Notes: generated by a model from the letters alone, not told the origin. Counted from the stretch's first letter, positions 3,415 through 34,586 are shown. The stretch is 36,468 bases of DNA from Bacillota bacterium (GCA_030536235.1 JAUNQK010000004.1:1-36468), one strand, 5' to 3'. Program-made: numbers and translations.

Positions 3415-3420
3415 ACTTAT

Positions 3421-3449
3421 ATTGTAATTGCCTTTAGCATTTTTTACAA
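3421..3449 (-). promoter_or_regulatory. candidate pyrR promoter (TTGTAA-17-TACAAT) ending 6 nt before the ATG
   Basis: Minus strand reads TTGTAA (3449-3444), a 17-nt spacer, TACAAT (3426-3421), ataagt, then ATG (3414). No SD in between. Confidence 0.4.
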
Positions 3450-3456
3450 GTATACT
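3428..3456 (+). promoter_or_regulatory. candidate upp promoter (TTGCCT-17-TATACT)
   Basis: TTGCCT 3428-3433, 17-nt spacer, TATACT 3451-3456. Downstream SD GAGGT lies about 6 nt before ATG 3485. It overlaps the divergent pyrR promoter. Confidence 0.35.
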
Positions 3457-3484
3457 AATCTTATAGAAAGATTGAGGTAATGAC

Positions 3485-4210: not shown

Positions 4211-4234
4211 ATTTTGTAGCAAAATACATTAAAT

Positions 4235-4331
4235 CTTTAATCCAATACAGAGAGATTGGCAAGGTGGTTATGTACTATTCTTTTGATGAAGATTAATACC
4301 TTGTCATATTATGTGGCAAGGTATTTTTATG
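4235..4331 (+). promoter_or_regulatory. PyrR-type transcription attenuator (binding hairpin, antiterminator, terminator)
   Basis: Hairpin CCAAT(4242-46)/ATTGG(4255-59) has loop ACAGAGAG, resembling the PyrR-binding UCCAGAGAGG-type loop. GGCAAGGT occurs twice (4258-65 and 4315-22), and both copies are complementary to ACCTTGTC (4298-4305). These are mutually exclusive antiterminator and terminator pairings. Confidence 0.6.
4296..4331 (+). terminator. intrinsic terminator of the attenuator
   Basis: 10-bp stem ATACCTTGTC / GGCAAGGTAT with a 9-nt loop, followed by TTTTTAT. Confidence 0.65.
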
Positions 4332-4380: not shown

Positions 4381-5808
4381 ATGAAACTTATTTATGATGT
4401 TCACGAAAAACCAAAGGGAAAGGAAAACTTACTCTTCGCTTTCCAACAGATGATTGCTATCATGGCAGCTACACTGCTTGTTCCAATCATCATGACAAGT
4501 AATGGTCTTCCATCAGACCCAGCTGCAGCATTATTTGGTGCTGGTCTTGGTACACTTGTTTACTTATTATTCACAAAATTCAGCAGCCCAGTATTCCTTG
4601 GAAGTACATTCACATTCCTTGGTGCATACGCAGCATCCATTGGCTATGGCTATGGTTACTGGGGCGTAATCATCGGTGTTGGCTTTGCAGCACTTGTATA
4701 TGTAATCTTCGCAATTGTAATTAAGGCTTCTGGTTCAGCTTGGGTTAACAAGCTTATGCCAGCAGTAATTGCAGGCCCAATTGTAACACTCATCGGGCTT
4801 TCACTTTCCGGCACAGCAACAAGCTGGATGCAGACAAATGGTGGAGAAACTTACAGCTTAGTAACAATTCTTGTTGGTCTTATCACATTCTTTGCTATTG
4901 TTTATTCAACAGTAAAGGGTAGCAAGAATATGAAGCTGTTCCCATTCATTTATGGTATTGGAGCAGGTTACATTATTGCTTTAGTTCTTACACTTATCGG
5001 AAATGCTGCAAATATTCCTGTACTTCAGATTTTAAGCTTCGATTCATTCAAGGCTGCATTTTCACCATTTACATTTAAATCAATCGTAGATATTCCTAAG
5101 CTTTATATCATTCAGGCTGTAAAGACTCAGGGCCAGTATGAACCAATTACAGCAACAGCACTTGCAAACATTGCTCTTATCTATGCGCCAATTGCAGTTG
5201 TAGAACTTGCACAGCATGTTGGTGATCACAAGAACCTTAGCAACATTATTGGTAAAGACCTTATTACAGACCCAGGTCTTGATAAGACACTCCTTGGCGA
5301 TGGTATTGGATCACTCGTTGGTACAATCTTTGGTTCATGCGCTAACACAACATACGGCGAATCAATCGGTTGCGTTGCTATTACAGGAAACGCTTCCTCA
5401 CATACAATTAAGACAGCAGCATTTGGTTGCATGATTCTTTCATTCTTCACACCATTCGTTGCTCTTATCAACTCAATTCCTAAGTGTGTAATGGGTGGCG
5501 CTTGCGTAGCACTTTATGGTCTTATTGCTGTATCAGGTCTCCAGCTTCTCTCAAGAGTTGACCTCGGCGATAACAGAAACCTCTATGTAGTAAGTGCAAT
5601 TCTTGTTTGCGGTATTGGCGGTTTAGCATTGAACTTTGGCCATAACTCAGCAACAGGTGGTTCTTTAATCTCACTCACATCTCTTGCAGCTGCTTTAATC
5701 GTAGGTATTATTACAAGAAAGATTACAGGTGCAAAAGACGATACATTATCTTCTGATACTTTATCCGGAGCAGTAGAAGGAATGAAAAACGTAGACATGG
5801 ATAAATAG
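4381..5808 (+). CDS. pyrP: uracil permease (NCS2 / uracil-xanthine permease family)
   Basis: Polytopic membrane protein with NCS2-like segments (FQQMIAIMAATLLVP, NTTYGESIG). Good SD AAGGAGAAAAG upstream. Preceded by the PyrR attenuator and adjacent to upp and pyrR. Confidence 0.8.
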   Translation: MKLIYDVHEKPKGKENLLFAFQQMIAIMAATLLVPIIMTSNGLPSDPAAALFGAGLGTLVYLLFTKFSSPVFLGSTFTFLGAYAASIGYGYGYWGVIIGVGFAALVYVIFAIVIKASGSAWVNKLMPAVIAGPIVTLIGLSLSGTATSWMQTNGGETYSLVTILVGLITFFAIVYSTVKGSKNMKLFPFIYGIGAGYIIALVLTLIGNAANIPVLQILSFDSFKAAFSPFTFKSIVDIPKLYIIQAVKTQGQYEPITATALANIALIYAPIAVVELAQHVGDHKNLSNIIGKDLITDPGLDKTLLGDGIGSLVGTIFGSCANTTYGESIGCVAITGNASSHTIKTAAFGCMILSFFTPFVALINSIPKCVMGGACVALYGLIAVSGLQLLSRVDLGDNRNLYVVSAILVCGIGGLALNFGHNSATGGSLISLTSLAAALIVGIITRKITGAKDDTLSSDTLSGAVEGMKNVDMDK

Positions 5809-11857: not shown

Positions 11858-13840
11858 ATGATATCGTATTCAGTATTTTTCATTTTTGAATTGCTGCTTT
11901 CTGAATTAGTATTCAGATACAGCGTTTATTCAGAACTAAATATTACGCCGTGGCTAATTGCTTTTGTTTTAGTGATTGCTTTAGCCGCAGCTTTTATTGC
12001 ATCGCTTTTAAAAGGCGTTATAGGGAAGATTTTTGCGGTAATAGTAACTGCATTTAATTTCATTTTTTATGGAACAAATTTAGTTTACTACCATATTTTT
12101 GGAACTTTCCTTTCTATTACGCAGTATTCTCAAGGGGCTGATGCTGTTTCAAATTTCTTTAGAGAAACTTTGCTTGGAATTAAAGAGTCTGCAGTCTATA
12201 TTGCATTGCTATTGATTCCGATAATAGTGCTTATAGTTTTACTAAAGCTTAAGGCATTTAATAAAGATTATAAGATTAAACATACATTTATTCTTTTGAT
12301 TGCCTCAATTTTAATCTTTGTTGGCAGTAGCCTTGGCATCAAAGCAATGCCAGATATCAATTATGGCGTTAAAGATATTTTTTATGAAAGCTTTGTTCTT
12401 TCTCTTTCAGAAAAAGATTTTGGCGTAATGGCATCTGCTATTTTAGAAACCAGAGATGTTTACTTTGGCAAGGGAAATACCATTGTTAAGCAGGAAAGAG
12501 AAAATGATGCAGCTGAGTATTCAAAAAAAGAGTATAACGTTTTGGATATAGATTTTGATGAGCTATCAAGATCTACCCAAGATGTAAAATATCAAAGCAT
12601 TGACGATTATATGGCAGATAAAGTTCCAACAAAAAAGAACTTTATGACGGGTAAGTATAAAGACTATAACGTTATCACTTTACTTTGTGAATCATTTTCG
12701 CCATATGTAATCAGTAAAGAATTAACCCCTACACTGTATAAACTGGCAAAAGAAGGTATTCAGTTTACAGATTACTATAACTGTAACGACAATAATACAT
12801 CGAATTCAGAGTATTCATTTTTAACAAGCTTGATGCCAGATACAACATTGTTTGTTCCTGATGGTGCAGGCTTTGAACAGTTTAGACAATATAATAGTTG
12901 CACAGCATCTCAAAAGAATTATTTGCCACTTACTTTGGCCAATGAATTATCGAAGAGATTTTATAGAACAGTTTTTTATCACAACTATTTGGCATCGTAT
13001 TATAATCGCGATTTAACTCATGGTAATTTCGGATTTGACTTAGTGACAATGAATGATGGGCTTAAATATAGCCCGTATTGGCCAACATCTGATATAGATT
13101 TGATGCAGCAAGCAGTGCCAGATTTAATTGAGAATTATCAACAGAGTAAAAAACCTTTCTATGCCTACTTCTTAACCTTTAGTGGACATATGGCATACAA
13201 CTTTGAAACAAATGAAATTGCTGCAAAGAATTATGAAGATGTGGCAGAGCTGCCATATGACGATGATGTTAAGGCTTATCTTGCCGGAAACATAGAACTT
13301 GAAAAAGCTATTAAATATATGATTAACGAGCTTGATAAGGCGGATATGCTTGATAATACACTAATTGTTCTTGCGCCAGATCATTATCCATATGGGCTTG
13401 GCATTGGACAGTTATCACAACTTACTACTGGCTACTTGGCAAGAAATAAGAACGAAATGGAACTTAACAAGCACAAGGGGGCACTACTTATGTGGACTGC
13501 TTCAATGCTTGATGAACCTCAGCAGGTAGTTGATTGGCCTGTTTCGGAATTAGATATTTTGCCAACCCTGCTTAATATGCTTGGCATTGATTATGATTCC
13601 AGATTGTTAATGGGTCTTGATGCTTTTGCTGATTGCAATCATATTGCAATGTTTGATGACAGAAGCTTTGTAACGAAGGATTTTTATTACAACATTAATA
13701 CCGGCGATGTGGTTTCCAGAAATGGGGCATCAACTGATAATGTTGATTTAGAAAAATATATCTCAAAGATTAAGAATGTATTTGCTGTTTCAGACAGTAT
13801 TTTGTATTCAGATTATTATAAGCACGTATTTGAAAAATGA
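11858..13840 (+). CDS. LTA synthase (LtaS)-family / sulfatase-superfamily membrane protein
   Basis: N-terminal multi-TM block followed by a sulfatase-type domain: NVITLLCESFS, NNTSNSEYSFLTSL (nucleophile region), LTFSGHMAY, LAPDHYPYG. Confidence 0.8.
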   Translation: MISYSVFFIFELLLSELVFRYSVYSELNITPWLIAFVLVIALAAAFIASLLKGVIGKIFAVIVTAFNFIFYGTNLVYYHIFGTFLSITQYSQGADAVSNFFRETLLGIKESAVYIALLLIPIIVLIVLLKLKAFNKDYKIKHTFILLIASILIFVGSSLGIKAMPDINYGVKDIFYESFVLSLSEKDFGVMASAILETRDVYFGKGNTIVKQERENDAAEYSKKEYNVLDIDFDELSRSTQDVKYQSIDDYMADKVPTKKNFMTGKYKDYNVITLLCESFSPYVISKELTPTLYKLAKEGIQFTDYYNCNDNNTSNSEYSFLTSLMPDTTLFVPDGAGFEQFRQYNSCTASQKNYLPLTLANELSKRFYRTVFYHNYLASYYNRDLTHGNFGFDLVTMNDGLKYSPYWPTSDIDLMQQAVPDLIENYQQSKKPFYAYFLTFSGHMAYNFETNEIAAKNYEDVAELPYDDDVKAYLAGNIELEKAIKYMINELDKADMLDNTLIVLAPDHYPYGLGIGQLSQLTTGYLARNKNEMELNKHKGALLMWTASMLDEPQQVVDWPVSELDILPTLLNMLGIDYDSRLLMGLDAFADCNHIAMFDDRSFVTKDFYYNINTGDVVSRNGASTDNVDLEKYISKIKNVFAVSDSILYSDYYKHVFEK

Positions 13841-14934
13841 TAGACAACATAGTATTACTAATTCCATCACTTAATCCAGACAAGAAACTTATTAGAACTG
13901 TAGAAGGTATGATTGCCGCAGGGTTCACTAAGATTCTTGTAGTTAATGATGGCTCAAATAGTTTCCATAGATGGCCTTTTGAAGAAATCGCCGGCTTTGG
14001 TGAAGTAACCTGTATTGGTTATGAAGAAAATAAGGGAAAGGGCCATGCATTAAAATATGGTTTTAAGTATATTCTTGAAAACTATGATAACGTTGCTGGC
14101 GTATTAACCGCTGATGGCGACGGGCAACATATGCCGGCTGATTGCATAAATGTGGCAAACGAAATGCTTGCTAAAAATGAATGCGTTTTTGGATGCAGAG
14201 ATTTTAGCGACCCATCTGTTCCAAGACGTAACAAGATGGGAAATAAAATTAGTATCTTTGCATATAATTTCTTATGCGAAATTAAAATGTCGGATACACA
14301 AACAGGTTTAAGAGCAATTCCTGTTCGTTACCTTAAAGAATTTATAGACGTTGAAGGCGAGAGATTTGAATATGAAACAAATACTCTTATCTACATGAAA
14401 AATCATGATATGCCTTTTAACGAGGTAAAGATTGATACAGTATATGAAAGTGATAGTAATGAAGGGTCTCACTTTAGAGTAGTTGAAGATTCTATAAGAA
14501 TCTATAAGCCACTTATTAAAGCGGGCGGCCCAAGGTTTTTACTCTTTACTTTGGGTTCGCTTCTTGCGACATTAATTGACCTTGCAATCTTTACAGTGCT
14601 CACTCACTTAATAGCAAGAACCTCAGAAGAATTTTTAGCAATTATTGCGTCTGTATTTATTGCTACATATACTGCAAGATTCTTCTCTGCACTGTTTGAC
14701 TATTACTTTAGCCTAAAGTTTGTTTTTAATAAGAATAAGAATCTTAAGAAGGGCGGTTTACTTAGATACTTTGTATTAATGCTGGCTCAGGCCGGCGTTT
14801 CCGCAGCGTTAGTAGCTGTTATTTGTTTCATTTTCGGAATTACAGGTGTAGTAAGAACTGCAATTAAAATCGTTATTGATACTTGTTTATTCTTTGTAGG
14901 ATACAGAATTCAAAGAGAGTGGGTATTTAAATAA
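13837..14934 (+). CDS. family 2 glycosyltransferase (GtrB/DPM1-like) fused to a GtrA-like membrane domain
   Basis: LLIPSLNP..., TADGDGQH DxD region and SDTQTGLR, then four C-terminal TM helices with a GtrA-like pattern. ATGA overlap with the upstream gene. Confidence 0.8.
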   Translation: MIDNIVLLIPSLNPDKKLIRTVEGMIAAGFTKILVVNDGSNSFHRWPFEEIAGFGEVTCIGYEENKGKGHALKYGFKYILENYDNVAGVLTADGDGQHMPADCINVANEMLAKNECVFGCRDFSDPSVPRRNKMGNKISIFAYNFLCEIKMSDTQTGLRAIPVRYLKEFIDVEGERFEYETNTLIYMKNHDMPFNEVKIDTVYESDSNEGSHFRVVEDSIRIYKPLIKAGGPRFLLFTLGSLLATLIDLAIFTVLTHLIARTSEEFLAIIASVFIATYTARFFSALFDYYFSLKFVFNKNKNLKKGGLLRYFVLMLAQAGVSAALVAVICFIFGITGVVRTAIKIVIDTCLFFVGYRIQREWVFK

Positions 14935-15827
14935 TGCTTGGAACAACTTTTTACTTTGATTGGGAAATAAATTTAATACTTGCGATTCAAGCACATTTTG
15001 GAAAAATTGGAGTTTTAATTTCTCAGGTTTGCTCGCTGCTTGGCCAGCAATACCCATTAGTTTTATTGGTATGCATCTTGTATTTTGCCATTGATAAGAA
15101 AATGGGCAAAAGAATTTGTTTGAATTTATTAACAGTTCTTGTGTGGTGTCCAATGATTAAAAATGTGACATTTAGACGCAGACCATATTTTGATAATGAG
15201 AATATCAAAATATTAATTGCTGCAGAGCCATCAGCAGATGCTTATGATATGGTTGCTCAGGGCTTTTCTTTCCCGAGTGCACATTCTGCTTGCTCTGTTG
15301 CTGCTTATCCGGCAATGACACGCTGCTCAAAGAAAAAGTGGCTTAGAGTGCTTGGATGGGTTCTTCCGTTTATTATAGGAATTTCACGTTTTTGTGTTGG
15401 AGCTCATTATCCAACAGATGTAATCGTTGGTTGGGCTTTAGGAATATTTGTAGCATTTATTATTCCGTTTCTGGGGTCAAAATTAAAGAATGAAAATTAT
15501 TTATACTTGATAATTTTGCTGACAGCGATTCCGGGGCTTTTCTATTGCCAAACCACAGACTACTTTAGCGGATTTGGATTACTTCTTGGATTTTTCTTGG
15601 GAAGCCTCTTCGAAGAAAAGTATGTTAATTTTGAAAAACCAAAATCAATCAAATATGCAATTTTAAGAGTTGCACTTGGAATAGGAGTTTTCTTATTATT
15701 CGCACAAGGAATTAAATTTATTTTAGGTGAAGGAATAGTAGTAAGAGTAATCAGATATACTGTTGGTGCATTTATTGCTTTAGGGGTATTTCCTATATTA
15801 TTTAAAAAGTTTGAAAAGGAGAATTAA
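14934..15827 (+). CDS. PAP2-family phosphatase (undecaprenyl-diphosphatase-like)
   Basis: PAP2 motifs KNVTFRRRP, SFPSAHS and SRFCVGAHYPTDV. TAATG overlap with the upstream gene. Confidence 0.85.
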   Translation: MLGTTFYFDWEINLILAIQAHFGKIGVLISQVCSLLGQQYPLVLLVCILYFAIDKKMGKRICLNLLTVLVWCPMIKNVTFRRRPYFDNENIKILIAAEPSADAYDMVAQGFSFPSAHSACSVAAYPAMTRCSKKKWLRVLGWVLPFIIGISRFCVGAHYPTDVIVGWALGIFVAFIIPFLGSKLKNENYLYLIILLTAIPGLFYCQTTDYFSGFGLLLGFFLGSLFEEKYVNFEKPKSIKYAILRVALGIGVFLLFAQGIKFILGEGIVVRVIRYTVGAFIALGVFPILFKKFEKEN

Positions 15828-15829
15828 TA

Positions 15830-16306
15830 ATGGGTCTTAAAGAAGTTCAGGATTATTTTCAGTCAAGAGGAATCCAAAACGAAATCATTTTACTTAATGA
15901 AAGTAGTGCGACAGTTGAACTTGCTGCAAAGGCATTAAATAGAGAACCTGGAGAAATTGCCAAGACTATGGCTCTTCAGCTTAAGGACGGCACAAACATA
16001 GTAATAGTAATTATGGGAACAGCAAGAATTGATAACCGTAAATACAAAGATTGCTTCGGCTGTAAGGCTAAGATGCTTAGCTTTGATGATACTTTAGCAA
16101 TCACTGGCCATCCAGTTGGCGGAGTTTGTCCATTTGGTCTTCCAGAAGGAATTAAAGTTTATTTAGATAAGAGCTTAAAGAAATATGAGACAGTTTTCCC
16201 TGCAGCTGGTACTCCAAATTCAGCAGTTGGTTTTTCTATTGCCGATCTTGAGGCTGCAATAGATGGAACCTGGATTGATGTATGTAAAGAAGAGGAACAA
16301 GAATAA
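15830..16306 (+). CDS. YbaK/EbsC-family aminoacyl-tRNA deacylase-like protein
   Basis: About 158 aa, with ...AKTMAL..., ITGHPVGGVCPFG and VFPAAGTPNSAV, typical of YbaK/ProX editing-domain proteins. SD AAGGAG. Confidence 0.8.
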   Translation: MGLKEVQDYFQSRGIQNEIILLNESSATVELAAKALNREPGEIAKTMALQLKDGTNIVIVIMGTARIDNRKYKDCFGCKAKMLSFDDTLAITGHPVGGVCPFGLPEGIKVYLDKSLKKYETVFPAAGTPNSAVGFSIADLEAAIDGTWIDVCKEEEQE

Positions 16307-17097
16307 TGAATATATTACTTGCAAACGATGATGGCATCGATGCATATGGATTGCATGTACTTGCTGACGCTCTAGCACAAATGAACGATGTAGAGAATAT
16401 CTATATCATTGCTCCAAATACTCAGCGTTCTTGCGGCGGACACGGCCTTACTTTAAACGGTAAGATCGATCTTGAACCTATAAACCCAATGGAATTTAAT
16501 GAAAAGGTAAATTGGGCTTATTCATGTTCGGGGGTTCCTGCTGATTGCACAAGAATTGGTATCTTTATGCTTAAGCAAGCAGGGGTTAGCCTCGATTTAG
16601 TTTGCACCGGAATCAATCATGGGTCAAATTGGGGCAGCGATATTTTCTACAGTGGAACTTTAGCAGCTGCAAGAGAAGCGAGCGTTTGCTTTACTCAGGC
16701 AATAGCTTTCAGCTTATGCGATAATCACCCAACTCATTTTGAACATTTTGCAAAGCTTGTTCCTGAGGTTGTTAAAAAGGCTTACAAAAAGCTTCCTTAC
16801 ACAACAGTTCTTAATGTAAATGTTCCGGATATTCCGGCAGAAGAAATTAAAGGAATGAGAGTTTGTAAGCAGGGCCCGATGGATTATGGCCTTGGTTATA
16901 AAAAATCTTTATCTAATGCTTCTGGTGTTTCTTTCGAATTTGATGGAGGCGAAGTGTATAGAGACAATGTAGACCCTGACTGGGACTGTGTTGTTGGCCG
17001 CGAAGGTTACATTACACTTGTTGCATGCGATCTTATGCCAGTTAGCAAAGAGTCAATGCAAGCTATTGAAAATTTAGGCATTAAGTATAATGAATAG
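16306..17097 (+). CDS. surE: 5'/3'-nucleotidase SurE
   Basis: MNILLANDDGIDAYGL, APNTQRSCGGHGLT, GINHGSNWG, YSGTLAAAREA. Confidence 0.9.
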   Translation: MNILLANDDGIDAYGLHVLADALAQMNDVENIYIIAPNTQRSCGGHGLTLNGKIDLEPINPMEFNEKVNWAYSCSGVPADCTRIGIFMLKQAGVSLDLVCTGINHGSNWGSDIFYSGTLAAAREASVCFTQAIAFSLCDNHPTHFEHFAKLVPEVVKKAYKKLPYTTVLNVNVPDIPAEEIKGMRVCKQGPMDYGLGYKKSLSNASGVSFEFDGGEVYRDNVDPDWDCVVGREGYITLVACDLMPVSKESMQAIENLGIKYNE

Positions 17098-17605
17098 AAT
17101 TAAAGAAACAATAGTAGTAGAAGGGCGCGACGATTTATCGGCAGTGCTTGCTGCTGTTGAGGCAAATGTGATTTGCACTCACGGCTACGGAATTAAAAAA
17201 ACAACGCTCGAAGAAATTAAAAAAGCTAATGAAACTTGTGGCGTTATAGTTTTTACTGATCCCGACCATGCAGGGCAAGTTATTAGAGAAAAAGTTTTAA
17301 GTGTTTGCCCAAATGCTAAGCAGGCATTCTTAACAAAGAACCAGGCTTATAAGGATGGTGACATTGGCATCGAAAATGCTAAGCCCGAGGATATTATCAA
17401 TGCTTTAAATGCTGCAGCTGCAAGCATTGGTGGAAAAGATAAATACACTATGGCTGATATGGATAGACTTGGTCTTTCAGGAGCAAGCGATAGTGCAAAG
17501 AAAAGAGCAGAGCTTGGCGCAAAGCTTGGCATTGGCAGCGGAAATGCTAAAGCATTTTTAAAGAAACTTAATTATTTAAATATAGACGAAGAATTATTGA
17601 AATGA
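17090..17605 (+). CDS. rnmV: ribonuclease M5 (Toprim domain)
   Basis: IVVEGRDDLSAV, VIVFTDPDHAGQVIREKV and GIENAKPEDI match B. subtilis RnmV by eye. Confidence 0.85.
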   Translation: MNRIKETIVVEGRDDLSAVLAAVEANVICTHGYGIKKTTLEEIKKANETCGVIVFTDPDHAGQVIREKVLSVCPNAKQAFLTKNQAYKDGDIGIENAKPEDIINALNAAAASIGGKDKYTMADMDRLGLSGASDSAKKRAELGAKLGIGSGNAKAFLKKLNYLNIDEELLK

Positions 17606-18987
17606 AAAGATCGAGCGGAATATTATTGCCAGTGTTTTCACTTCCATCTAATTACGGTTGCGGAAGTCTTGGCAAAGAAGCTTACAATTTTATAAATTTT
17701 TTAGTTGAAGCTAAACAAACATATTGGCAGATGCTTCCGATTAACCATGTCGGCTACGGAAACTCTCCATATTATTGCTATTCTTCTTTTGCAGGGAACC
17801 CAGCATTGATAGATCTTGATTTGTTAAAAGAAGATGGGATGCTTGATGGCTTTGATTTGGATTCTTTAGATTTTGGTTCTGATTTAACAAGAGTAAATTA
17901 CGAAAAGGTTAATGCGTTAAAATCTAAAGCTCTGCATTATGCATTTGAACACAGAAATATTTTTGAAGAATTTGAAAACTTTAAAAACGAAAATTCAAGA
18001 TGGCTTAAACCATATGCAGAGTTTATGGCAAAAAAGGATAATGATGAATCTGAATACCATGAATTTGTTCAGTTCATTTTCTATAAACAGTGGTATGCAT
18101 TAAAGAAATATGCAAATGACAATGGAATTAAACTGATTGGCGATGTTCCTGTTTATGTTCCACTTGATTCTGCTGACGTTATGGCCGAGCCAGAGTTCTT
18201 TATGCTAGACGAAAAGAATGTGCCTATCGAAGTTGCTGGTGTTCCACCAGATTACTTTAATGAAGAAGGGCAGCTTTGGGGCAATCCTCTTTACAATTGG
18301 GAGGCTATGAAAAATGATGGCTATGGTTGGTGGATTCGCAGAATGGACGGAACATTAAAGCTTTTTGATGTGGTTCGCATGGATCATTTTAGAGGCTTTG
18401 ATAGCTATTGGGCTGTTCCGTATGGTGAAACTAATGCAATCAATGGACATTGGGTTCAGGGCCCGGGAATAGAATTTGTTCATATCATGACATCTTGGTT
18501 TGGCCAGGACAAATTTATTGCAGAAGATTTAGGTATATTAAGTGAAAGCGTTCGAAATCTTTTGAGAGATTCCGGCCTGCCTGGAATGAGAGTTTTGGAA
18601 TTTGCTTTTACAAAGGATAAGACAAGTTCTTATTTACCATATAGATATGATCATAATTGTATCTGCTATACAGGAACTCATGATAATGCTCCTGTTATGG
18701 CTTGGGTTAAAGAGGCAGACGAAGAAGATTTAGCGTTTGCCAGAGAGTATTGCAATTGCATAAATGAAGATATGAATTGGGGCATGATTAAAGTTGGTAT
18801 GGCTTCAGTTGCAGATTTATTTGTTGCGCAAATGCAAGATTATTTAGGGCTTGATGAAAAATCCAGAACAAATACTCCGGGAACAGTTGGCGGAAACTGG
18901 GAATGGAGACTTAAAAAAGATGAAGCTTCAAAAGAGCTTGCGAAACGAATTGCTTTGCTTACAGAAAATTATGGCAGGGCTAGGTGA
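17602..18987 (+). CDS. malQ: 4-alpha-glucanotransferase (amylomaltase, GH77)
   Basis: RSSGILLPVFSLPSNYGCGSLG, LIGDVPVYV, QLWGNPLYNW, VRMDHFRGF, IAEDLG, TGTHDN. Confidence 0.9.
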   Translation: MKRSSGILLPVFSLPSNYGCGSLGKEAYNFINFLVEAKQTYWQMLPINHVGYGNSPYYCYSSFAGNPALIDLDLLKEDGMLDGFDLDSLDFGSDLTRVNYEKVNALKSKALHYAFEHRNIFEEFENFKNENSRWLKPYAEFMAKKDNDESEYHEFVQFIFYKQWYALKKYANDNGIKLIGDVPVYVPLDSADVMAEPEFFMLDEKNVPIEVAGVPPDYFNEEGQLWGNPLYNWEAMKNDGYGWWIRRMDGTLKLFDVVRMDHFRGFDSYWAVPYGETNAINGHWVQGPGIEFVHIMTSWFGQDKFIAEDLGILSESVRNLLRDSGLPGMRVLEFAFTKDKTSSYLPYRYDHNCICYTGTHDNAPVMAWVKEADEEDLAFAREYCNCINEDMNWGMIKVGMASVADLFVAQMQDYLGLDEKSRTNTPGTVGGNWEWRLKKDEASKELAKRIALLTENYGRAR

Positions 18988-18992
18988 TAGAG

Positions 18993-19700
18993 ATGAATAA
19001 TAATCCAATTGGAGTATTCGATAGTGGTGTTGGAGGGCTTTCATGCGTTCCAGCAATCGCCAAAGAACTTCCTAATGAACAAATTATATATTTTGGAGAT
19101 ACTGCCAGAGCCCCTTATGGATGCAGAGACCCTAAAGAGATAATAGAGTTTTCTTTAGAAGTTGCAGATAAATTAATTGGTATGGGATGTAAATCTTTAT
19201 CAATTGCATGTAATACTATAACTGCTGTTGCACTTGACGCGCTCGAAAAGCATTGCAGTGTTCCTGTGATTGGAATAATTCCTCCGGTAATTCAGTATCT
19301 AAATAGTAATTATGCAGATAAAAGAATTGGAGTTATTGCAACAGAAGCAACAGTAAAATCTGGTGCTTATCCATATAAAGCAAAGGCTGCAATTCCATTT
19401 GTTCCAAATATTGAAAAAGCAGGAACTGTTCCTGATGAAGTAATTAGAGAAGTTCTTGATGATTTCGTAGTTGATATTGATGTTTTGGTTCTTGGATGTA
19501 CACATTATCCATTTGCAAGGCCAAGCATTGAAAGATTATATAAAGACTTGATAATAGTTGACCCTGCAGAAGAGTTGGCAAAAAAGACAAAAGAAGTTCT
19601 TACAGCTAATAATTTACTTGCTAAGGAAAAGAAAGAGAATATTTATTTGGCAAGTAAGGTAACAGATACATTTAATGATATCGTAAGGAGGATAAAATGA
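18993..19700 (+). CDS. murI: glutamate racemase
   Basis: IGVFDSGVGGLS, catalytic Cys motifs IACNTITA and LGCTHYPF. ATG 18993 (SD AGGTGA 5 nt upstream) preferred over GTG 18984. Confidence 0.85.
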   Translation: MNNNPIGVFDSGVGGLSCVPAIAKELPNEQIIYFGDTARAPYGCRDPKEIIEFSLEVADKLIGMGCKSLSIACNTITAVALDALEKHCSVPVIGIIPPVIQYLNSNYADKRIGVIATEATVKSGAYPYKAKAAIPFVPNIEKAGTVPDEVIREVLDDFVVDIDVLVLGCTHYPFARPSIERLYKDLIIVDPAEELAKKTKEVLTANNLLAKEKKENIYLASKVTDTFNDIVRRIK

Positions 19701-20287
19701 TTGATCTTGAAAAACTCACAAAAAATTTAAAAGCAAACGGTTTTGAAGTCGCTCATTTTAACACTAAAGAAGAGGCTAGAGAGTATTTATCTTCAAAGCT
19801 TAACGGCAGAACAATTGGTTTCGGTGGCTCAATAACAACTGAAGAAATGCAGCTGATTGATGCCCTTAAAGAAAACAATACTTTATTACATCACTGGCAT
19901 GAAGGTATTTTGTCAGAAGCTGCTAAGGCCGATGTTTATATTTCTTCTGCAAATGCTATTGCTGAAACAGGTGAAATTATTAATATTGATGGCACAGGTA
20001 ACAGAGTATCATCAATGGCATTTGGCCATGAAGAATATTATATGATTATTGGCAAAAACAAGATCGCTAAAGATTATGACAAAGCGCTTTGGCGTGCAAG
20101 AAATATTGCTGCACCTAAAAATGCACAAAGACTTAACAGAAACACTCCTTGTGCTAAGAAGGGTGATAAATGCTATAACTGCAATAGCCCGGAAAGAATT
20201 TGCAGATGCTTAAACGTTCTTTGGAAAAAACCAGGATCATTTAAAACTTTTGAAATTATTTTAGTAGATGAGAATTTAGGATATTAA
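19697..20287 (+). CDS. LUD-domain (lactate utilization LutC/YkgG-like) protein with a Cys-rich C-terminus
   Basis: Size and pattern fit the LUD/DUF162 family (GFGGSITTEE, SANAIAETGEIINIDGTGNR). C-terminal CAKKGDKCYNCNSPERICRC. SD AGGAGG and ATGA overlap. Confidence 0.65.
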   Translation: MIDLEKLTKNLKANGFEVAHFNTKEEAREYLSSKLNGRTIGFGGSITTEEMQLIDALKENNTLLHHWHEGILSEAAKADVYISSANAIAETGEIINIDGTGNRVSSMAFGHEEYYMIIGKNKIAKDYDKALWRARNIAAPKNAQRLNRNTPCAKKGDKCYNCNSPERICRCLNVLWKKPGSFKTFEIILVDENLGY

Positions 20288-20290
20288 TGT

Positions 20291-20463
20291 TAAAGACATC
20301 TTAGGTCTGAGGTTGAAAGTCCAAGCCAGCTATGGGCAAAGGGATCCACGTAAGCGCATAGCAAGAGGCATGCGTGATCATGGCATAGCTTAGAAGTAAG
20401 TCCTCGGAAAATCCGGTAAAGGCAAGTGTGGGGTCAAAGACCTGGTCAGCTAAGATGTTTTTA
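20291..20463 (+). ncRNA. candidate structured RNA / cis-regulatory element of unknown class upstream of a MATE gene
   Basis: 14-bp closing helix (20291-20304 / 20450-20463) with nested helices 20306-12/20402-08 and 20328-34/20384-90. A hairpin spans 20343-20379 and a small hairpin 20432-42. GC content is clearly above the flanks by eye. The only ORF across it is an antisense 61-aa ORF. Confidence 0.4.
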
Positions 20464-20474
20464 TAGATTTTGAA

Positions 20475-21854
20475 ATGTTCAAACAAAAATACAGTACAAA
20501 AGAAATTTTTGAAGAGCTTCCTATTAACAAATCTCTCTTTACTTTATCGCTTCCGGCTATTATAGGACAGCTAATAACACTTATTTATAACATAGCAGAT
20601 ACATTCTTTATTGGGCAGGTAAATAACCCATTAATGATTACTGCAACATCATTGGCATTCCCAATTTTCGCAATGACTGCACCGGTTTCTATTATTACTG
20701 GTACAGGTGGCGGAACATTGATTTCCAGATTGATGGGTGTTCATCAAGATGATGAAGCAAGAAGAGTATCAGCATATAGTATTTGTGTAAATATTGCTTT
20801 GGGGCTTATTTACTCTTTATTAGTATTTGCATTTTTAGAACCTCTTATTGTATTTCTTGGTGCAACAAAGGGTTCGGAAACTTTTATTTATACCAAACAA
20901 TACATGACATGGGTAGTAATTTTAGGTGGTCTTCCAACTATTGTTACAAACTCTATGGCAAATATGCTTAGAAGTGTAGGCCATTCAAAAGAGGCAGGTT
21001 TTGGAGTTGCCTTTGGCGGAATCATGAATATAGTATTAGACCCTATATTTATGTTCGTTCTTTTGCCTGATGGAATGGAAGTTGTTGGCGCAGGTGCTGC
21101 AACAATGATTTCTAACTGCGCTTCAGCTTTATATTTTGCAATTAAGATTTTCCAATTGCAAAAATCTACCCCGCTTAATTATTCATTTAAGTATGGTCTG
21201 CCAAGCAAAACAAATATGTTTAAGGTGTTTGCGGTTGGGCTTCCTTCAGCAACAACTACTTTGCTCTTTGATGTAAACAACATGCTTCTTAATAAGCTTA
21301 TGTCAGCATATGGAGATATTGCAGTTGCTGCTATCGGTATGACAGTTAAACTTGAAAGATTCTCACTTAATACTTGCATCGGTATCTGCCTTGGTATGAC
21401 ACCACTTGTTGCATACAATTATTCTTGCCGGAATTACAGCCGAATGAAAGACTATGTAAATACAACAAGAAGATGGGGCTTAATTATTAGTTTAATTAGC
21501 ATTGCTTTATATGAAATTTTTGCCGCTCCATTTGTAAGAATCTTTATTAAAGATGCTGCGACAGTAGCTCTTGGTGCTGCTTTTCTTAGGAGAAGAGCAA
21601 TTGCTTCCATATTTATGTTCTTAAACTTTTATATGGTGCATTTCTTCCAGGGCATTGGATCGGGCAAACACACATTCTGGTTATCGGTTATCCGTTACGC
21701 ATTTTTATGTATACCGGCACTGTTTGTAATGAATACGTGCTTTGGTATGTACGGGCTTCCAATGGCTCAGGCTGTTGGTGATAGCATTAGTGCTGCAATT
21801 TGTGCAGTTGTTTATACACGGTTCATTAAGAAAAACATTGATTGCGGAGAATAA
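20475..21854 (+). CDS. MATE-family efflux transporter
   Basis: 12-TM protein with a typical MATE N-terminus (LSLPAIIGQLITLIYNIADTFFIGQ). No SD upstream of the ATG. Confidence 0.85.
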   Translation: MFKQKYSTKEIFEELPINKSLFTLSLPAIIGQLITLIYNIADTFFIGQVNNPLMITATSLAFPIFAMTAPVSIITGTGGGTLISRLMGVHQDDEARRVSAYSICVNIALGLIYSLLVFAFLEPLIVFLGATKGSETFIYTKQYMTWVVILGGLPTIVTNSMANMLRSVGHSKEAGFGVAFGGIMNIVLDPIFMFVLLPDGMEVVGAGAATMISNCASALYFAIKIFQLQKSTPLNYSFKYGLPSKTNMFKVFAVGLPSATTTLLFDVNNMLLNKLMSAYGDIAVAAIGMTVKLERFSLNTCIGICLGMTPLVAYNYSCRNYSRMKDYVNTTRRWGLIISLISIALYEIFAAPFVRIFIKDAATVALGAAFLRRRAIASIFMFLNFYMVHFFQGIGSGKHTFWLSVIRYAFLCIPALFVMNTCFGMYGLPMAQAVGDSISAAICAVVYTRFIKKNIDCGE

Positions 21855-23697: not shown

Positions 23698-25053
23698 ATG
23701 AAAAACGAATTGTTAAGTAACGATTTAACTACAGGCACTATATGGAAAAAGATGTTGGCATACTTCTTGCCACTTGCAGCAGGAACAGTATTCCAACAGC
23801 TGTATAATGCTGCCGATGGATTAATCGTTGGTAAATATGTAGGAACAATTGCACTTGCCGCCGTAGGTGGTTCTGCCGCATTAGTATCAAATGCACTTGT
23901 AAATTTCTTCGTAGGTTTAACAGGTGGCGGATCAATACTTATTGCTCAATTCTTTGGGGCAAACAATAAAAACAATTTAAAAAAATCTGTATCGACCTCA
24001 ATGATATTTGCTTTCTTTTGCGGAATTGCAATTAGCATTGCATGTTTCTTGTTAACATCGAATATTTTGGTATGGATGAAGAACCCTGCAGAATGCATGG
24101 AAGATTCAATTATTTATCTTCGCATAGTATTTTGCGGGCTGATGTTCCAGCTTGTTTATAATATGTCGGCCGGAATTCTTAGAGCAATTGGCGATTCAAG
24201 AACTCCATTTATCACTTTATCAGTTAGCTGCACAATAAACATTGCTCTTGATTTATTATTTGTTAAAGTGTTCGCTTGGGGTGTTGCAGGTGCTGCTTAT
24301 GCGACTATTATTTCTCAACTTGTTTGCGCGCTGCTTACAACTTCAAAATTAATTAAGTATAGAGCCGAAAGTTATGGTTTGAATTTAAAAGAACTGTGTT
24401 TTGATTGGAATATCTTAAAGAAATCTCTTGCCGTTGGTGTGCCTTTGGCATTCCAAACAATGATGTATGCGGTTACAAATATTCTAATTCAGGTAAGCAT
24501 TAATGTTCTTGGAACAGTTGATGTCGCTGCATGGGCTATTACCGGAAAGCTCGATGGATTCTTCTGGGGGTTCATGAGTGCGGCAAATGCAACGGTAACA
24601 AACTTTATTGGCCAAAACTATGGCAAGGGTGATTATGATAGAATGAAGAAGGGCGTCTATGCTTCATTCGCAATATTTATGATACTTGGGGTGGCCTACA
24701 GCGTGTCTCTTGTAGCATTCTCGAATCAGCTTATACCGTTATTCTCTGACGACCCTGCTGTATTTCTTGTATCAAAGAAAGTTATCAATATTATTGGGCC
24801 GTTCTATTGGGTTTGGGTATTTAATGAGATATTCTCAGGGGCCCTTCGAGGCGAAGGCAAAACTCTTATTTCCTTTATTATTATCGCAATTAGTATTTGC
24901 GGGTTTAGACTGGCCTGGCTTGCAACATTGTTTGCAGCCAAAAGCACAATAGAAATGCTGTCAATTTGCTACCCAGCTTCTTGGGCGGTAGCAAGCTGCG
25001 GCATGGCAATTTATTATATTATCCACATGAGACGCAAAGCTGTGGTACAATAA
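23698..25053 (+). CDS. MATE-family efflux transporter (second copy)
   Basis: YFLPLAAGTVFQQLYNAADGLIVGKYVG and a 12-TM profile. The start abuts the previous stop (TAAATG). Confidence 0.85.
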   Translation: MKNELLSNDLTTGTIWKKMLAYFLPLAAGTVFQQLYNAADGLIVGKYVGTIALAAVGGSAALVSNALVNFFVGLTGGGSILIAQFFGANNKNNLKKSVSTSMIFAFFCGIAISIACFLLTSNILVWMKNPAECMEDSIIYLRIVFCGLMFQLVYNMSAGILRAIGDSRTPFITLSVSCTINIALDLLFVKVFAWGVAGAAYATIISQLVCALLTTSKLIKYRAESYGLNLKELCFDWNILKKSLAVGVPLAFQTMMYAVTNILIQVSINVLGTVDVAAWAITGKLDGFFWGFMSAANATVTNFIGQNYGKGDYDRMKKGVYASFAIFMILGVAYSVSLVAFSNQLIPLFSDDPAVFLVSKKVINIIGPFYWVWVFNEIFSGALRGEGKTLISFIIIAISICGFRLAWLATLFAAKSTIEMLSICYPASWAVASCGMAIYYIIHMRRKAVVQ

Positions 25054-30974: not shown

Positions 30975-30998
30975 AGCGAGCCATTCGGCTCGCTTTTA
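30975..30998. terminator. bidirectional intrinsic terminator between convergent genes
   Basis: Stem AGCGAGCC / GGCTCGCT with loop ATTC, flanked by A-rich (30965-74) and T-rich (30995-98) tracts. Confidence 0.7.
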
Positions 30999-33533
30999 TA
31001 TTAGTTTTACTATATCTTTAAACTTAGTTTTTTCCGGAGCATTTTCTTCTAAAATTCTTCGAATTTCTTTTATGGCTTGATTGACTTCATATTCGAGCTC
31101 TCGGTTAGACATTCTAAGAAGCCCGGCTCTTAAAGCACTAAGCTGTATAAGGCCATCTGATGTCGCAACCTTTACTGAATAGTTTTTGCCTATTTCGTGA
31201 GCAAGGCTTTCGATATATGCGTCGGCGCTTTCACCTTCTTTTGTGTAAACAACATGAATGCCATGGTCATCTTCTTTAGTGCCCAGATTATCTTTAACCT
31301 TATAGCCATCAAATACCAAACATACCTCACAATCTTTATATGCTCTGTAGTTAATAAGCATATCAATTAGTTTTTGCCTTGCGTTTGCAATTTTTTCTTC
31401 TTTAAGGCTTTCCCATGCAAAGATAATGTTATAACCATCTACTATTAAGTATTCTTTTTTAATAGTAGTTTGTTTCTTTTTATAGTTTCCGCCAAAGTCT
31501 ACTGTTACACTTGCAATCTGAGGTCTTTTGATTTCGCCAAACTCTCTTTGCATAATTGCCTCGAGCTCTTTTTCGTCAAAATCTATATTGCCACTTCTAA
31601 CTTTTGGTGCATGCAGCACTTCGAGTTTGTCATCTTTTATTTCGATTCCGCTATCAAGATGAACAAAATCAGGAACCTTATTCCACTTTACATTGACTCC
31701 GGCACCATGAGAACAGAATACTGAATCTGCTGTGTTTTCTACATCACGATCTGCCTCGTAAGCTATTTCTTCTAAGACTTTTGCTGTGTTGTGGCAAGGG
31801 AAGTAACCTGCAAATGTGCAAGAAATATGGCCTCTACCTTTTGTGTAAGAAAGTAAATCTGTTAAGTATAATTGAAGTTCTGAAACAGGGCCGGCGCCAA
31901 CAAGTTCAATTGTGTCTCCTAAATCAATTGGGGCCTCGAAGCTGCAAGACATAGCCTTGCAATCGCTAATAGCGCGGCCAATATATTCTGATGGAACATC
32001 GAGGGTAAAATCGTAATAAGGTTCAAGCAGAATATTTTGCGCAGACATAAGACCTTGTCTAACTGCGCGATATGTTGCCTGTCTAAAGTCTCCGCCTTCG
32101 GTGTGTTTTAGATGAGCACGTCCAGCGATAAGACTAATTTTCATATCGGTAATAGGAGAACCTGTTAAAACACCAAGGTGGGTTTTCTCTGCTAAATTTG
32201 TAAGGACAAGCCTTTGCCAATTCAAATCAAGATCATCTGTGCTGCAAGCTGATGTGAAAATTAATCCGGTGCCTGGTTCGAGTGGCTCCATTAAGAGATG
32301 AACTTCTGCGTAGTGTCTTAATGGTTCGAAATGCCCCATGCCGATAATAGGTTCTGCAATTGTTTCTTTATAAACAATTTTACCTTTATCAATTTCGACG
32401 TCCATATTGTAACGTTCGGAAATTAATTCTTTTAATACATCAATTTGAACCTCGCCCATTAATTGTGCTTCTATTTGCTTAAGCTGGCTATTCCAAACGA
32501 TGCGAAGCATAGGGTCTTCTTCTGCTAAGAGATTTAATTTTTGCATAGCAGTAAAATTATCAACGCCATTAGGCGGAATAATTCTGTAAGATAATACCGG
32601 CTCAAGAATTGGAAGGTCGCCATCGTTTTCTGCACCAAGGCCTTGCCCTGCATCTGTGTTATTTAAACCTGTAAGTGCGTAAACACTGCCGGCTTCGGCT
32701 TTATCTACTGCAGAAAATTTTACGCCAGAATATGAGCGAATTTGCGTAATCTTTTCTTCGCCAATTAGGTCTCTTGGCGCAAGAGTGCCTCCTGTAAGTT
32801 TAATCCAAGTTAAACGAACGCCATCATCGGCATGTGTAATTTTATATACTTTTGCTTTAAATTCATTAGGATAGTTTCTGACCTTGGTATAAGTTTTTAG
32901 TCCATTTAAAAACTTATCTACACCTTGAAGCTTTAAAGCAGAACCTTTAAAACATGGGAAAAGTTTTCTTTTTAAGATAAGGTCTTGAATGGTTTCTGTT
33001 TTTAATGAACCGGTTTCAAGATATTCAGAAATTGCATCTTCGTCTAATTCTGCAATCTGTTCATAATTGATATTATTAAAGTCAACAAAGCCAGTCTTGA
33101 AATGAAGGTTAAGTTCACTCAAAACGTCTTTGTCTGTCAAATCCATTTTATTGATCCATACAAATGTTGGGATATGGTAACGTTTTAGTAGATCCCAAAG
33201 GGTTTGGGTATGCGCCTGAATTCCGTCTGGCCCACTAATAACAAGGATGGCATAGTCTAAAACTGAAAGGGTTCGCTCCATTTCGGCTGAAAAATCCATG
33301 TGCCCTGGGGTGTCAAGAAGGTTAATCTCTAAATCGTCAATATCAAAAATAGCCTGCTTTGAAAAGATAGTAATCCCACGCTGTCTTTCAATCAGGAAAT
33401 TGTCTAAATAAGCATCTTTATGGTCAACACGGCCTAAATTCTTGATTTTGCCGCTCTTGAAAAGCATAGCTTCGCTCATTGTTGTTTTCCCTGCATCAAC
33501 ATGAGCAAGTATGCCAATTACATTTCGTTTCAT
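30996..33533 (-). CDS. fusion protein: TetM/TetO-like EF-G-family translational GTPase + C-terminal YacP/Rae1-type NYN endoribonuclease domain
   Basis: 845 codons from MKRNVIGILAHVDAGKTT (G1), with ERQRGITI, DTPGH (G3) and NKMD (G4). Similarity to TetM continues through domains II-V to about aa 640. The last ~150 aa (31000-31457) carry LIVDGYNIIFAW, CLVFDG, TKEGESADAYIESLA, VATSD and SNRELEYEV, matching B. subtilis Rae1/YacP. No frameshift or stop between the parts. Confidence 0.85.
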   Translation of the reverse strand: MKRNVIGILAHVDAGKTTMSEAMLFKSGKIKNLGRVDHKDAYLDNFLIERQRGITIFSKQAIFDIDDLEINLLDTPGHMDFSAEMERTLSVLDYAILVISGPDGIQAHTQTLWDLLKRYHIPTFVWINKMDLTDKDVLSELNLHFKTGFVDFNNINYEQIAELDEDAISEYLETGSLKTETIQDLILKRKLFPCFKGSALKLQGVDKFLNGLKTYTKVRNYPNEFKAKVYKITHADDGVRLTWIKLTGGTLAPRDLIGEEKITQIRSYSGVKFSAVDKAEAGSVYALTGLNNTDAGQGLGAENDGDLPILEPVLSYRIIPPNGVDNFTAMQKLNLLAEEDPMLRIVWNSQLKQIEAQLMGEVQIDVLKELISERYNMDVEIDKGKIVYKETIAEPIIGMGHFEPLRHYAEVHLLMEPLEPGTGLIFTSACSTDDLDLNWQRLVLTNLAEKTHLGVLTGSPITDMKISLIAGRAHLKHTEGGDFRQATYRAVRQGLMSAQNILLEPYYDFTLDVPSEYIGRAISDCKAMSCSFEAPIDLGDTIELVGAGPVSELQLYLTDLLSYTKGRGHISCTFAGYFPCHNTAKVLEEIAYEADRDVENTADSVFCSHGAGVNVKWNKVPDFVHLDSGIEIKDDKLEVLHAPKVRSGNIDFDEKELEAIMQREFGEIKRPQIASVTVDFGGNYKKKQTTIKKEYLIVDGYNIIFAWESLKEEKIANARQKLIDMLINYRAYKDCEVCLVFDGYKVKDNLGTKEDDHGIHVVYTKEGESADAYIESLAHEIGKNYSVKVATSDGLIQLSALRAGLLRMSNRELEYEVNQAIKEIRRILEENAPEKTKFKDIVKLI

Positions 33534-33539
33534 GCTATA

Positions 33540-33548
33540 ATTATACCA
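33540..33548 (-). promoter_or_regulatory. extended -10 box (TGgTATAAT) 6 nt upstream of the GTPase-NYN ATG
   Basis: Minus strand reads tTGGTATAAT, then tatagc, then ATG (33533). No SD. The whole divergent intergenic gap is only 30 bp. Confidence 0.35.
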
Positions 33549-33563
33549 AAGAGGTGACGGCTT

Positions 33564-34586
33564 ATGTTTAATAATTATAATGAAGTTAAAGAAAACGCTA
33601 AAAAAGTTTTGGCCGGAATTTGTTATGTTTGCCCAGAATGCAATGGGCTTGCTTGCGTTGGCAAGGTTCCTGGATGTGGTTCTAAGGGGCACGGCGCAGG
33701 TTTTATTGATTGCAAAAAATACTTAAATTCAATCAAGATTAATATGGATGCTGTTCATGAACATTTCGAAGCTGATACAAGTGTTGAATTGTTTGGGCAC
33801 AAGTTTGATTTACCATTTTGTGCAGGACCGATTGGTGGAATGCAGTTAAATTATGGCGGAAAGCTTGATGAATATGATTATGCGAAGGCTTTAGTAAATG
33901 GTTGTAAGGATAATGGGATATTTGCCTGGACAGGCGATGGCCCAGATGATTTGATTTTTAGAAAACCACTTGCTGCTATAAAAGAAGCCGGCGGAACAGG
34001 TGTTATTGCATTAAAACCATGGGAACAAGAAAAAATATTTGCAAAAATTAAAGAGCTTGAAGACGCTAACCTTATGGCCTTTGGCATGGACGTTGATGCA
34101 GCCGCTTTAATTAATTTAAAGCTTGCTGGAAAACCTGTATATACAAAATCAGAAGCTGAATTAAAGGATATTGCTCAAAGCACAAAGATGCCATTTATCG
34201 TAAAAGGCGTGCTTACCCCTGCTGCTGCTGAAAAATGTGCAAAGGCTGGTTGCTATGGCATTGTTGTTTCTAATCATGGCGGAAGAATTATGGCAGACTC
34301 AGCTGTCCCTGCAAGTATGCTTCAAGAAATTAAAAAAGCAGTTGGAGACAGCCTTAAGATTTTTGTTGATGGCGGAATCAGAAATGGCGCAGATATCTTT
34401 AAGTGCTTAGCACTTGGTGCAGATGAAGTAATTCTTGCAAGACCATTTGTTACTGCTGTCTTTGGAGGCGGAGAAGAAGGCGTTAAATTATTTATTGAAC
34501 AGCTTGCATCTGAATTAAAAGAAACAATGTTAATGACAGATTCAAGAACGATTAAAGATATTACAATAGATAAAATTAGGTTATAG
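33564..34586 (+). CDS. FMN-dependent alpha-hydroxy-acid oxidoreductase-like TIM-barrel protein with an N-terminal Cys cluster
   Basis: VVSNHGGR, DGGIRNGADIFKCLALGAD and FIVKGV are typical of the glycolate/lactate oxidase family. The N-terminus carries C20-x2-C-x2-C-x4-C-x6-C38. SD AGAGGTG. Confidence 0.8.
   Translation: MFNNYNEVKENAKKVLAGICYVCPECNGLACVGKVPGCGSKGHGAGFIDCKKYLNSIKINMDAVHEHFEADTSVELFGHKFDLPFCAGPIGGMQLNYGGKLDEYDYAKALVNGCKDNGIFAWTGDGPDDLIFRKPLAAIKEAGGTGVIALKPWEQEKIFAKIKELEDANLMAFGMDVDAAALINLKLAGKPVYTKSEAELKDIAQSTKMPFIVKGVLTPAAAEKCAKAGCYGIVVSNHGGRIMADSAVPASMLQEIKKAVGDSLKIFVDGGIRNGADIFKCLALGADEVILARPFVTAVFGGGEEGVKLFIEQLASELKETMLMTDSRTIKDITIDKIRL

Follow-up and report, generated by a model that had tools for sequence, protein, structure and literature searches.

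The locus and its surroundings

The window analysed here, a 36,468-nucleotide stretch of DNA from a Bacillota bacterium (GCA_030536235.1 JAUNQK010000004.1:1-36468), contains a 187-nt gap between a gene for a LUD-domain protein and a gene for a MATE efflux transporter, and this gap holds a GC-enriched segment (Table 1). An earlier note on this DNA described the segment as a discrete, structured, noncoding element closed by a long helix, a description that is borne out. As the note had stated, only 3 nt separate the element from the LUD-domain stop codon (TAA, 20285-20287) and 11 nt from the MATE ATG. Its GC content (49% for 20296-20458) exceeds that of the whole window (36.7%). The plus strand folds with -53.2 kcal/mol (z = -3.35, with none of 200 shuffles as stable). 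The z-score of the reverse strand is close to this value (-3.23), so that fold energy indicates structure but not strand. The minimum-free-energy fold recovers the closing helix and misses the family core described below, and thermodynamic folding was left out of the structure and strand decisions.

Upstream of the element, nine genes on the plus strand (11858-20287) follow one another head to tail, some with overlaps of a few bases, and lead into the RNA gene. They encode an LTA-synthase-like sulfatase, a GT2 glycosyltransferase, a PAP2 protein, a tRNA-editing domain protein, SurE, RNase M5, MalQ, MurI and the LUD-domain protein. Downstream, the claim that the MATE gene lacks a Shine-Dalgarno (SD) sequence proved correct, with an anti-SD duplex of -0.4 kcal/mol at its start compared to -6 to -16 kcal/mol for the majority of the window's genes. 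A further MATE gene in this block (23698-25053, plus strand), the second, also has no SD, with aataataaaaaaataaATG upstream and a duplex of +0.2 kcal/mol. Having a weak SD or none may thus be characteristic of these transporter genes, with no link to the RNA. An exact lookup of the MATE protein returned one 2.6-kb Logan contig, from run SRR24915801, which ends inside the RNA.

Elsewhere in the window, the PyrR binding site model (RF00515) matches below threshold at 4230-4331 on the plus strand (44.1 bits versus a gathering score of 54; E = 0.005). The match falls within the 236-nt gap that precedes a uracil/xanthine permease gene (4381-5808), next to pyrR (2872-3486, minus strand) and upp (3485-4144). 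It is probably a genuine PyrR attenuator just below the Rfam cut-off. A single ORF on the minus strand (30996-33692; 898 aa from the first GTG, called as 845 aa) encodes a fusion of a TetM/EF-G-like translational GTPase (domains GTP_EFTU, EFG_III, EFG_IV and EFG_C) with a C-terminal NYN ribonuclease of the YacP/Rae1 type. The fusion is conserved, as both domain sets occur in every one of the best 120 homologue clusters (54-89% identity, 813-937 aa); the few named homologues are mostly called "NYN domain-containing protein". This architecture was noted in ten Clostridiales species (Atkinson 2015, PMC4342817), and no functional characterisation of it was found in the literature searched.

Table 1. 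Coordinates of the RNA, its structural parts and the two flanking genes, in window numbering
Feature	Position	Strand	Details
LUD-domain gene, 196 aa	19697-20287	+	Pfam PF02589; last gene of a tight co-directional array
P1 5' strand	20291-20304	+	5-nt extension 20291-20295 and P1a 20296-20304; pairs with 20450-20463
raiA motif RNA (ModT), RF03072	20296-20458	+	full-length model match; short subtype without P2 and P8
P1b/P1c 5' side	20305-20318	+	G10-U11 bulge 20305-06, P1b CUG 20307-09, P1c AGGU 20310-13
U19 and turn	20314; 20315-18	+	U19, then the G20-A21-A22-A23 "GAA(A)" turn
P3 hairpin	20319-20345	+	P3a GUCC/GGAU 20319-22/20342-45; P3b GCC/GGC 20325-27/20335-37
P3 loops	20323-24/20338-41; 20329-34	+	AA/AAAG internal loop; apical GCUAUG, the PK1 5' strand
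P4 5' strand	20346-20349	+	CCAC; pairs with GUGG 20428-31
P5 hairpin	20354-20375	+	GCGCAU/AUGCGU (20354-59/20370-75), small GC/GC extension, AAGAG loop
PK2 5' segment	20380-20383	+	A-U-G-G; U20381-A20436 and G20382-C20435; flanking G-A pairs per the cryo-EM description
PK1 3' strand	20384-20389	+	CAUAGC; pairs with 20329-34
Single-stranded linker UUAGAAGUAAG	20390-20400	+	near-invariant in alignment A1; proposed KhpA-KhpB binding site
P6/P7, small-hairpin variant	20402-20422	+	P6 CCU/AGG, P7 CGG/CCG, GUAA bulge where P8 would branch
3' segment	20428-20449	+	P4 3' strand 20428-31; 8-nt linker GGUCAAAG with PK2 and bulged A142 (20437)
3' segment, P1 part	20440-49	+	P1c ACCU 20440-43, GGU bulge 20444-46, P1b CAG 20447-49
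P1 3' strand	20450-20463	+	P1a part 20450-58; U-run 20458-20462; end 11 nt before the MATE ATG
MATE efflux transporter gene, 459 aa	20475-21854	+	Pfam, NCBIfam; no Shine-Dalgarno

A raiA RNA of the short subtype

When the whole window was scanned against Rfam 15, RF03072 (raiA RNA) was the sole match above gathering score. The match scored 136.5 bits compared to a gathering score of 101.3 (E = 8.9e-34) and spans model positions 1-209, end to end and not truncated. The covariance model matched the plus strand only, the 36-kb window contains one copy, and a permissive scan of the window (E <= 1) also returned raiA alone at this locus. The element had been described as unassigned. This was wrong, as RF03072 covers all of it far above the gathering score. 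The earlier note had also named a confident match to a known Rfam family as the outcome that would remove the element's novelty, and the Rfam scan produced such a match. The host fits the family's range of Bacillota or Actinomycetota, and the relatives of the RNA are found in an Anaerovoracaceae metagenome-assembled genome (MAG; locus L046), other Clostridia and Acidimicrobiia. The element is a conventional member of raiA/ModT, a known, curated and structurally solved family. The raiA motif RNA, listed in Rfam since its discovery by Weinberg 2017 (PMC5737381), received a revised consensus in Soares 2024 (PMC10861870), genetic studies described phenotypes in two species (Soares 2024, PMC10861870; Lence 2024, PMC11706538), and several structures have been determined by cryo-EM (He 2026, PMC12968392).

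Helices were placed by hand on the published architecture (PMC12968392), with position 1 at 20296. The window RNA has every core helix of the family, the two pseudoknots and the conserved linker. The 43-nt insertion of the model is reduced to only 4 nt, which is the "small hairpin" variant of P6, with no P2. P1 has its three parts (P1a, GU bulge, P1b, GGU bulge, P1c), and the GAA(A) turn and A142 are present as sequence. The linker UUAGAAGUAA at 20390-99 fits the conserved UUAGA(A/C)GUAA (PMC12968392).

Homologues were collected by an exact-pattern scan of one genome per GTDB species, limited to the spacing of the short subtype. The scan gave 51 loci, 43 from Clostridia (many labelled Anaerovoracaceae, Aminipila or Fimisoma) and 8 from Acidimicrobiia. 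Fifty of these loci and the window were aligned with MAFFT, and the alignment (A1, n = 51) was built without structure. On A1 the published architecture, including the pseudoknots, is 95.4% paired, with 31 pairs changed on both sides. None of 500 shuffles matched the observed values, and slid controls were 33-44% paired. Compensatory change is extensive in P1 (13 of 14 pairs changed on both sides, and 8 of 9 in P1a alone), in PK1 (6 pairs, 100% paired, 5 changed on both sides) and in P5, where all six pairs changed on both sides, pairing is 88% and loop length varies. The three pairs of P7 also changed on both sides. P3a, P3b and P6 are 100% paired, and one P3a pair (columns 32/52) is CG in 43 sequences and GC in 8. 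P4 is 100% paired and near-invariant, with one compensatory change from AU to GC. One P1c pair (columns 20/183) is UA in 40 sequences, AU in 9, including the window, and CG in 2, with none unpaired. Parts of P1b, P1c and PK2 were held constant by the search pattern itself, so that their invariance is no evidence: P1b is invariant in A1, and PK2, which is 100% paired but invariant in columns partly fixed by the pattern, is compatible with the architecture only. The closest relative, L046, is 96.9% identical to the window RNA in nucleotide sequence, with five differences, among which are one compensatory change in P1a (U-A to C-G) and one change there from A-U to G-U. For the neighbouring murI, LUD and MATE coding sequences, nucleotide identity between the two is 67-73%.

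These alignments also allow the helices proposed in the earlier note to be assessed. The 14-bp closing helix, TAAAGACATCTTAG/CTAAGATGTTTTTA, with 13 Watson-Crick pairs and one G-U pair, is P1, and the AGCTATG/CATAGCT helix is PK1, supported by compensatory changes in the 51 homologues. The proposed interrupted hairpin survives in part: its GCAT/ATGC core is P5 and shows compensatory changes, whereas its GAT/ATC and CAC/GTG parts show none, one of their pairs is open in 24 of 51 sequences, and the bases concerned are used instead in the 3' strand of P3a and in P4. The TCTGAGG/CCTCGGA helix is refuted, with two of its pairs broken in 39 and 28 of the 51 homologues; its 5' half falls in P1b/P1c. 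The small GGTC-AAA-GACC hairpin is invariant in the alignment, which places it beyond the reach of covariation, and it conflicts with P1c and PK2 of the solved structures. The proposed structure as a whole reaches 88.5% pairing on A1 because it shares P1, PK1 and the P5 core with the published architecture.

The closest published counterpart in layout is Mp-raiA from Mogibacterium pumilum (163 nt; cryo-EM, PDB 9E75; He 2026, PMC12968392), which is of the same subtype, lacks P2 and P8, and has a small bulged P6/P7 hairpin. Within its Rfam bounds the window RNA also measures 163 nt, with G20-A21-A22 and A142 at identical numbers. In the numbering of Ns- and Ca-raiA, G10, G14 and U19-A23 coincide with the window RNA, and these residues are stated to be conserved in Mp-raiA (PMC12968392). 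The likeness to Mp-raiA is one of length, layout and landmark residues in the published description; P1 of the window RNA has 14 bp. GTDB places Mogibacterium in the Anaerovoracaceae, the family label of L046.

The closing helix of the window RNA is longer than the one in the Rfam model, with a native P1 that extends five pairs beyond the 9-bp P1a. These five pairs (A1 columns 1-5 with 199-203; 20291-20295/20459-20463 in the window) are formed in 36-47 of the 51 sequences, with many compensatory changes. Uninterrupted P1 pairing of 17-25 bp is found in a quarter of the loci. P1a length has been called highly conserved (PMC12968392). Native short-subtype raiA transcripts may have a longer stem than the constructs studied.

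Gene context and transcription

The genes that flank the RNA in the window are atypical for the family. The reported context, typical and not obligatory, is comFC upstream in 74% and raiA/hpf downstream in 66%. Gene neighbours were identified by tblastn for 44 clostridial loci, 43 from the genome scan and the window. A ComFC-like gene, with double zinc ribbon and phosphoribosyltransferase domains (Pfam), lies upstream on the same strand in 32 of 43 clostridial loci, and an hpf/raiA homologue lies within about 1.2 kb downstream in 28, mostly 70-500 nt away and co-oriented in 27. The window departs from this context, which is a frequency feature and not a defining one, and which its clostridial relatives show. 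Gene and domain annotation revealed neither comFC nor hpf in the 36-kb window, and one candidate for comFC, the phosphoribosyltransferase gene at 2872-3486 on the minus strand, is the pyrR gene mentioned above. The neighbours of the window RNA are LUD-domain and MATE genes instead of comFC and hpf(raiA), and the gaps to the flanking ORFs are 3-8 nt upstream and 11-16 nt downstream, compared to the tens to hundreds usual in the family. Other genes found downstream among the 44 loci encode CdaA (three loci) and a solute-binding protein (two loci). In the three CdaA loci (L011, L022 and L048), the gene that follows the raiA RNA encodes a CdaA-type diadenylate cyclase, a c-di-AMP synthase. This recalls the published link between ModT and cyclic dinucleotides, and three loci prove nothing.

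A MATE gene lies downstream of the raiA RNA in three of the 44 loci, namely the window, L046 and L008 (Firmicutes bacterium UBA1764), which form one syntenic clade. They share the block murI-(LUD)-raiA-MATE-5'-nucleotidase-MATE-CNNM-CNNM, and in all three the distance from the RNA to the MATE start is 11-22 nt. Proteins of L046 are 60-82% identical to those of the window. The order of the nine-gene array is kept in L046, whose LUD orthologue (74% amino acid identity) occupies the same position; in L008 the LUD-domain gene is missing and murI adjoins the RNA. When metagenomes were scanned with the LUD protein, five loci (52-64% identity) turned up, and a raiA RNA adjoined none of them. Since raiA does not accompany these other LUD homologues, the LUD-raiA adjacency is confined to the window and L046. 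The odd neighbourhood is thus a property of one small clade and goes with the synteny of the whole block. The position of the RNA upstream of MATE is best read as inherited synteny in this clade and not as a regulatory pairing.

Signals for transcription of the RNA vary within the clade and its relatives. No convincing sigma-A promoter was found before the window RNA. The hexamers closest to a -10 box, GATATT and TATTAA, coincide in part with the LUD stop codon and lack a usable -35, and no promoter-like site was found on the plus strand from 20077 to 20667. In L046 a TTGACG lies at suitable distance and the -10 is poor. A strong promoter of the RNA's own is thus absent in the window and L046, whereas L008 has a good sigma-A promoter (TTGTTA-17-TACAAT). 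The -10 box of L008 and those of L039, L041 and L040 (TATAAT) are located about 6-8 nt before P1. Scoring of -10 and -35 boxes across loci was confounded by variable P1 extensions, and only the clear cases from the alignment are given here. A U-run follows P1 directly in the window, in its six closest relatives (L046, L008, L039, L040, L041 and L009) and in about half of all loci. Together, the -10 boxes of the relatives and the U-runs fit a transcript that would start and end at P1.

Studies of homologues suggest how the window RNA may act. [quoted passage not shown] Deletion delays the transition to stationary phase, reduces sporulation and aggregation, and increases c-di-GMP, and these phenotypes are complemented in trans, even by orthologues from other species (PMC10861870, PMC11706538). 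The KhpA-KhpB proteins bind four raiA RNAs, including one of the short subtype, at about 2 µM, probably at an exposed linker (PMC12968392). By analogy with the two clostridial homologues, the window RNA would be a discrete, very stable RNA of about 165-175 nt. It would fold into the conserved pyramid-like core formed by P3a-P3b, P4, PK1 and PK2, with P1 as a protruding arm, and the exposed UUAGAAGUAAG linker would be the proposed site for KhpA-KhpB. It would act in trans on the passage from growth into stationary phase, affecting sporulation, aggregation and the level of c-di-GMP. The RNA could originate from a weak promoter that overlaps the end of the LUD gene or by excision from a read-through transcript of the array, and the MATE gene would probably be transcribed by read-through past the U-run at the end of P1. 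Among the identities offered in the earlier note, the stand-alone small RNA is the one that agrees with what raiA RNAs are shown to be in other species. In this respect the raiA homologues resemble 6S RNA and OLE RNA, being abundant, stable, trans-acting and probably ribonucleoproteins. The Rfam scan shows no sequence or structural similarity to either, and the likeness is one of lifestyle only.

Alternative readings and implications

We consider it very probable that the element is a raiA/ModT gene of the compact subtype, from Anaerovoracaceae-like Clostridia, that it gives rise to a discrete, trans-acting RNA, and that its adjacency to MATE is inherited synteny. A variant of this reading is that in the clade of the window raiA has left the comFC-hpf locus for a co-directional, operon-like array, where it adjoins the MATE gene, and the RNA is matured from a polycistronic transcript, with P1 and the U-run coupling MATE expression to RNA synthesis. 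The lack of a strong promoter in the window and L046, together with the lack of an SD before the MATE gene that follows raiA in both, is in keeping with this variant, which we regard as unlikely; L008 has a good promoter. If the variant were true, P1 and the U-run would work as a leaky terminator or a barrier to translation, and the RNA would combine roles in cis and in trans, a combination not described for the raiA family.

Alternatively, the raiA RNA could also, or instead, act in cis as a 5' leader of the MATE mRNA, with P1 and the U-run serving as a leaky terminator, a processing site or a translation barrier. MATE expression would then be tied to RNA folding, ligand state or protein occupancy. 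Like riboswitches and other 5'-leader regulators, the window RNA has a conserved, pseudoknotted fold just upstream of a transporter gene on the same strand, followed by a U-run. The 3' strand of P1 ends 11 nt from an ATG that lacks an SD, and promoter-like sites are lacking on the plus strand across 20077-20667. The window, L046 and L008 all have U-runs directly after P1, and all three retain the short spacing to MATE despite protein identities of only 63-67%. However, the whole block is syntenic, and the adjacency thus needs no special selection. The other 41 clostridial members have a different and usually more distant downstream gene, and a stem that closes a 140-nt multi-helix fold would be an atypical intrinsic terminator. 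A search for an expression platform at the locus identified no compact terminator hairpin, no SD to sequester and no alternative pairing, and showed P1 followed by U5, 11 nt before the ATG. Unlike riboswitches, raiA RNAs have no consistent downstream gene, no recognised platform based on alternative pairing and no known ligand; members of the family lack expression platforms and the mutants are rescued in trans (PMC10861870, PMC11706538). The window sequence deviates at no conserved position in a way that would hint at a new function. We hold this leader function to be quite improbable, and a cis effect on the MATE gene is unlikely. The suggestion in the earlier note of a riboswitch or cis-regulator of the efflux pump is unsupported, given that MATE is downstream in 3 of 44 clostridial loci and hpf in 28, and that phenotypes are rescued in trans.

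The element was also proposed to be a MITE or similar mobile element with 14-bp terminal inverted repeats. Its ends are indeed inverted repeats, matching at 13 of 14 positions. However, neither the arms nor the core have another copy in the 36-kb window beyond chance, the flanks (AATG and TAGA) form no target-site duplication, and the raiA family is reported to be single-copy per genome (PMC10861870). At orthologous loci the arms differ in sequence yet stay complementary, as the strands of RNA helices do and transposase-binding ends do not. We reject this option as extremely improbable. Another option, prompted by a likeness of the joints GAAAGUCC and AGAAGUAA to intron and RNase P cores, is a degenerate piece of a group II intron or of an RNase P-like RNA. 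It has next to no probability, as the Rfam scan of the whole window at E <= 1 gave neither family and the purine-rich joints correspond to two conserved parts of raiA RNAs, the GAA(A) turn and the linker between PK1 and P6.

With the raiA/ModT gene retained as the identity of the element, the identification itself carries little weight, as the family has long been catalogued and this copy conforms to it. Specialists on raiA RNA may nevertheless gain from two small leads. One is the length of P1: most RNAs of the short subtype are closed by a helix that exceeds the 9-bp P1a in the Rfam model by several pairs. The other is the clade to which the window belongs. In this clade raiA is separated from comFC and hpf and lies nearly without spacers between protein genes, and it thus offers a natural test of whether the RNA is made from its own promoter and terminator or by maturation from an mRNA.
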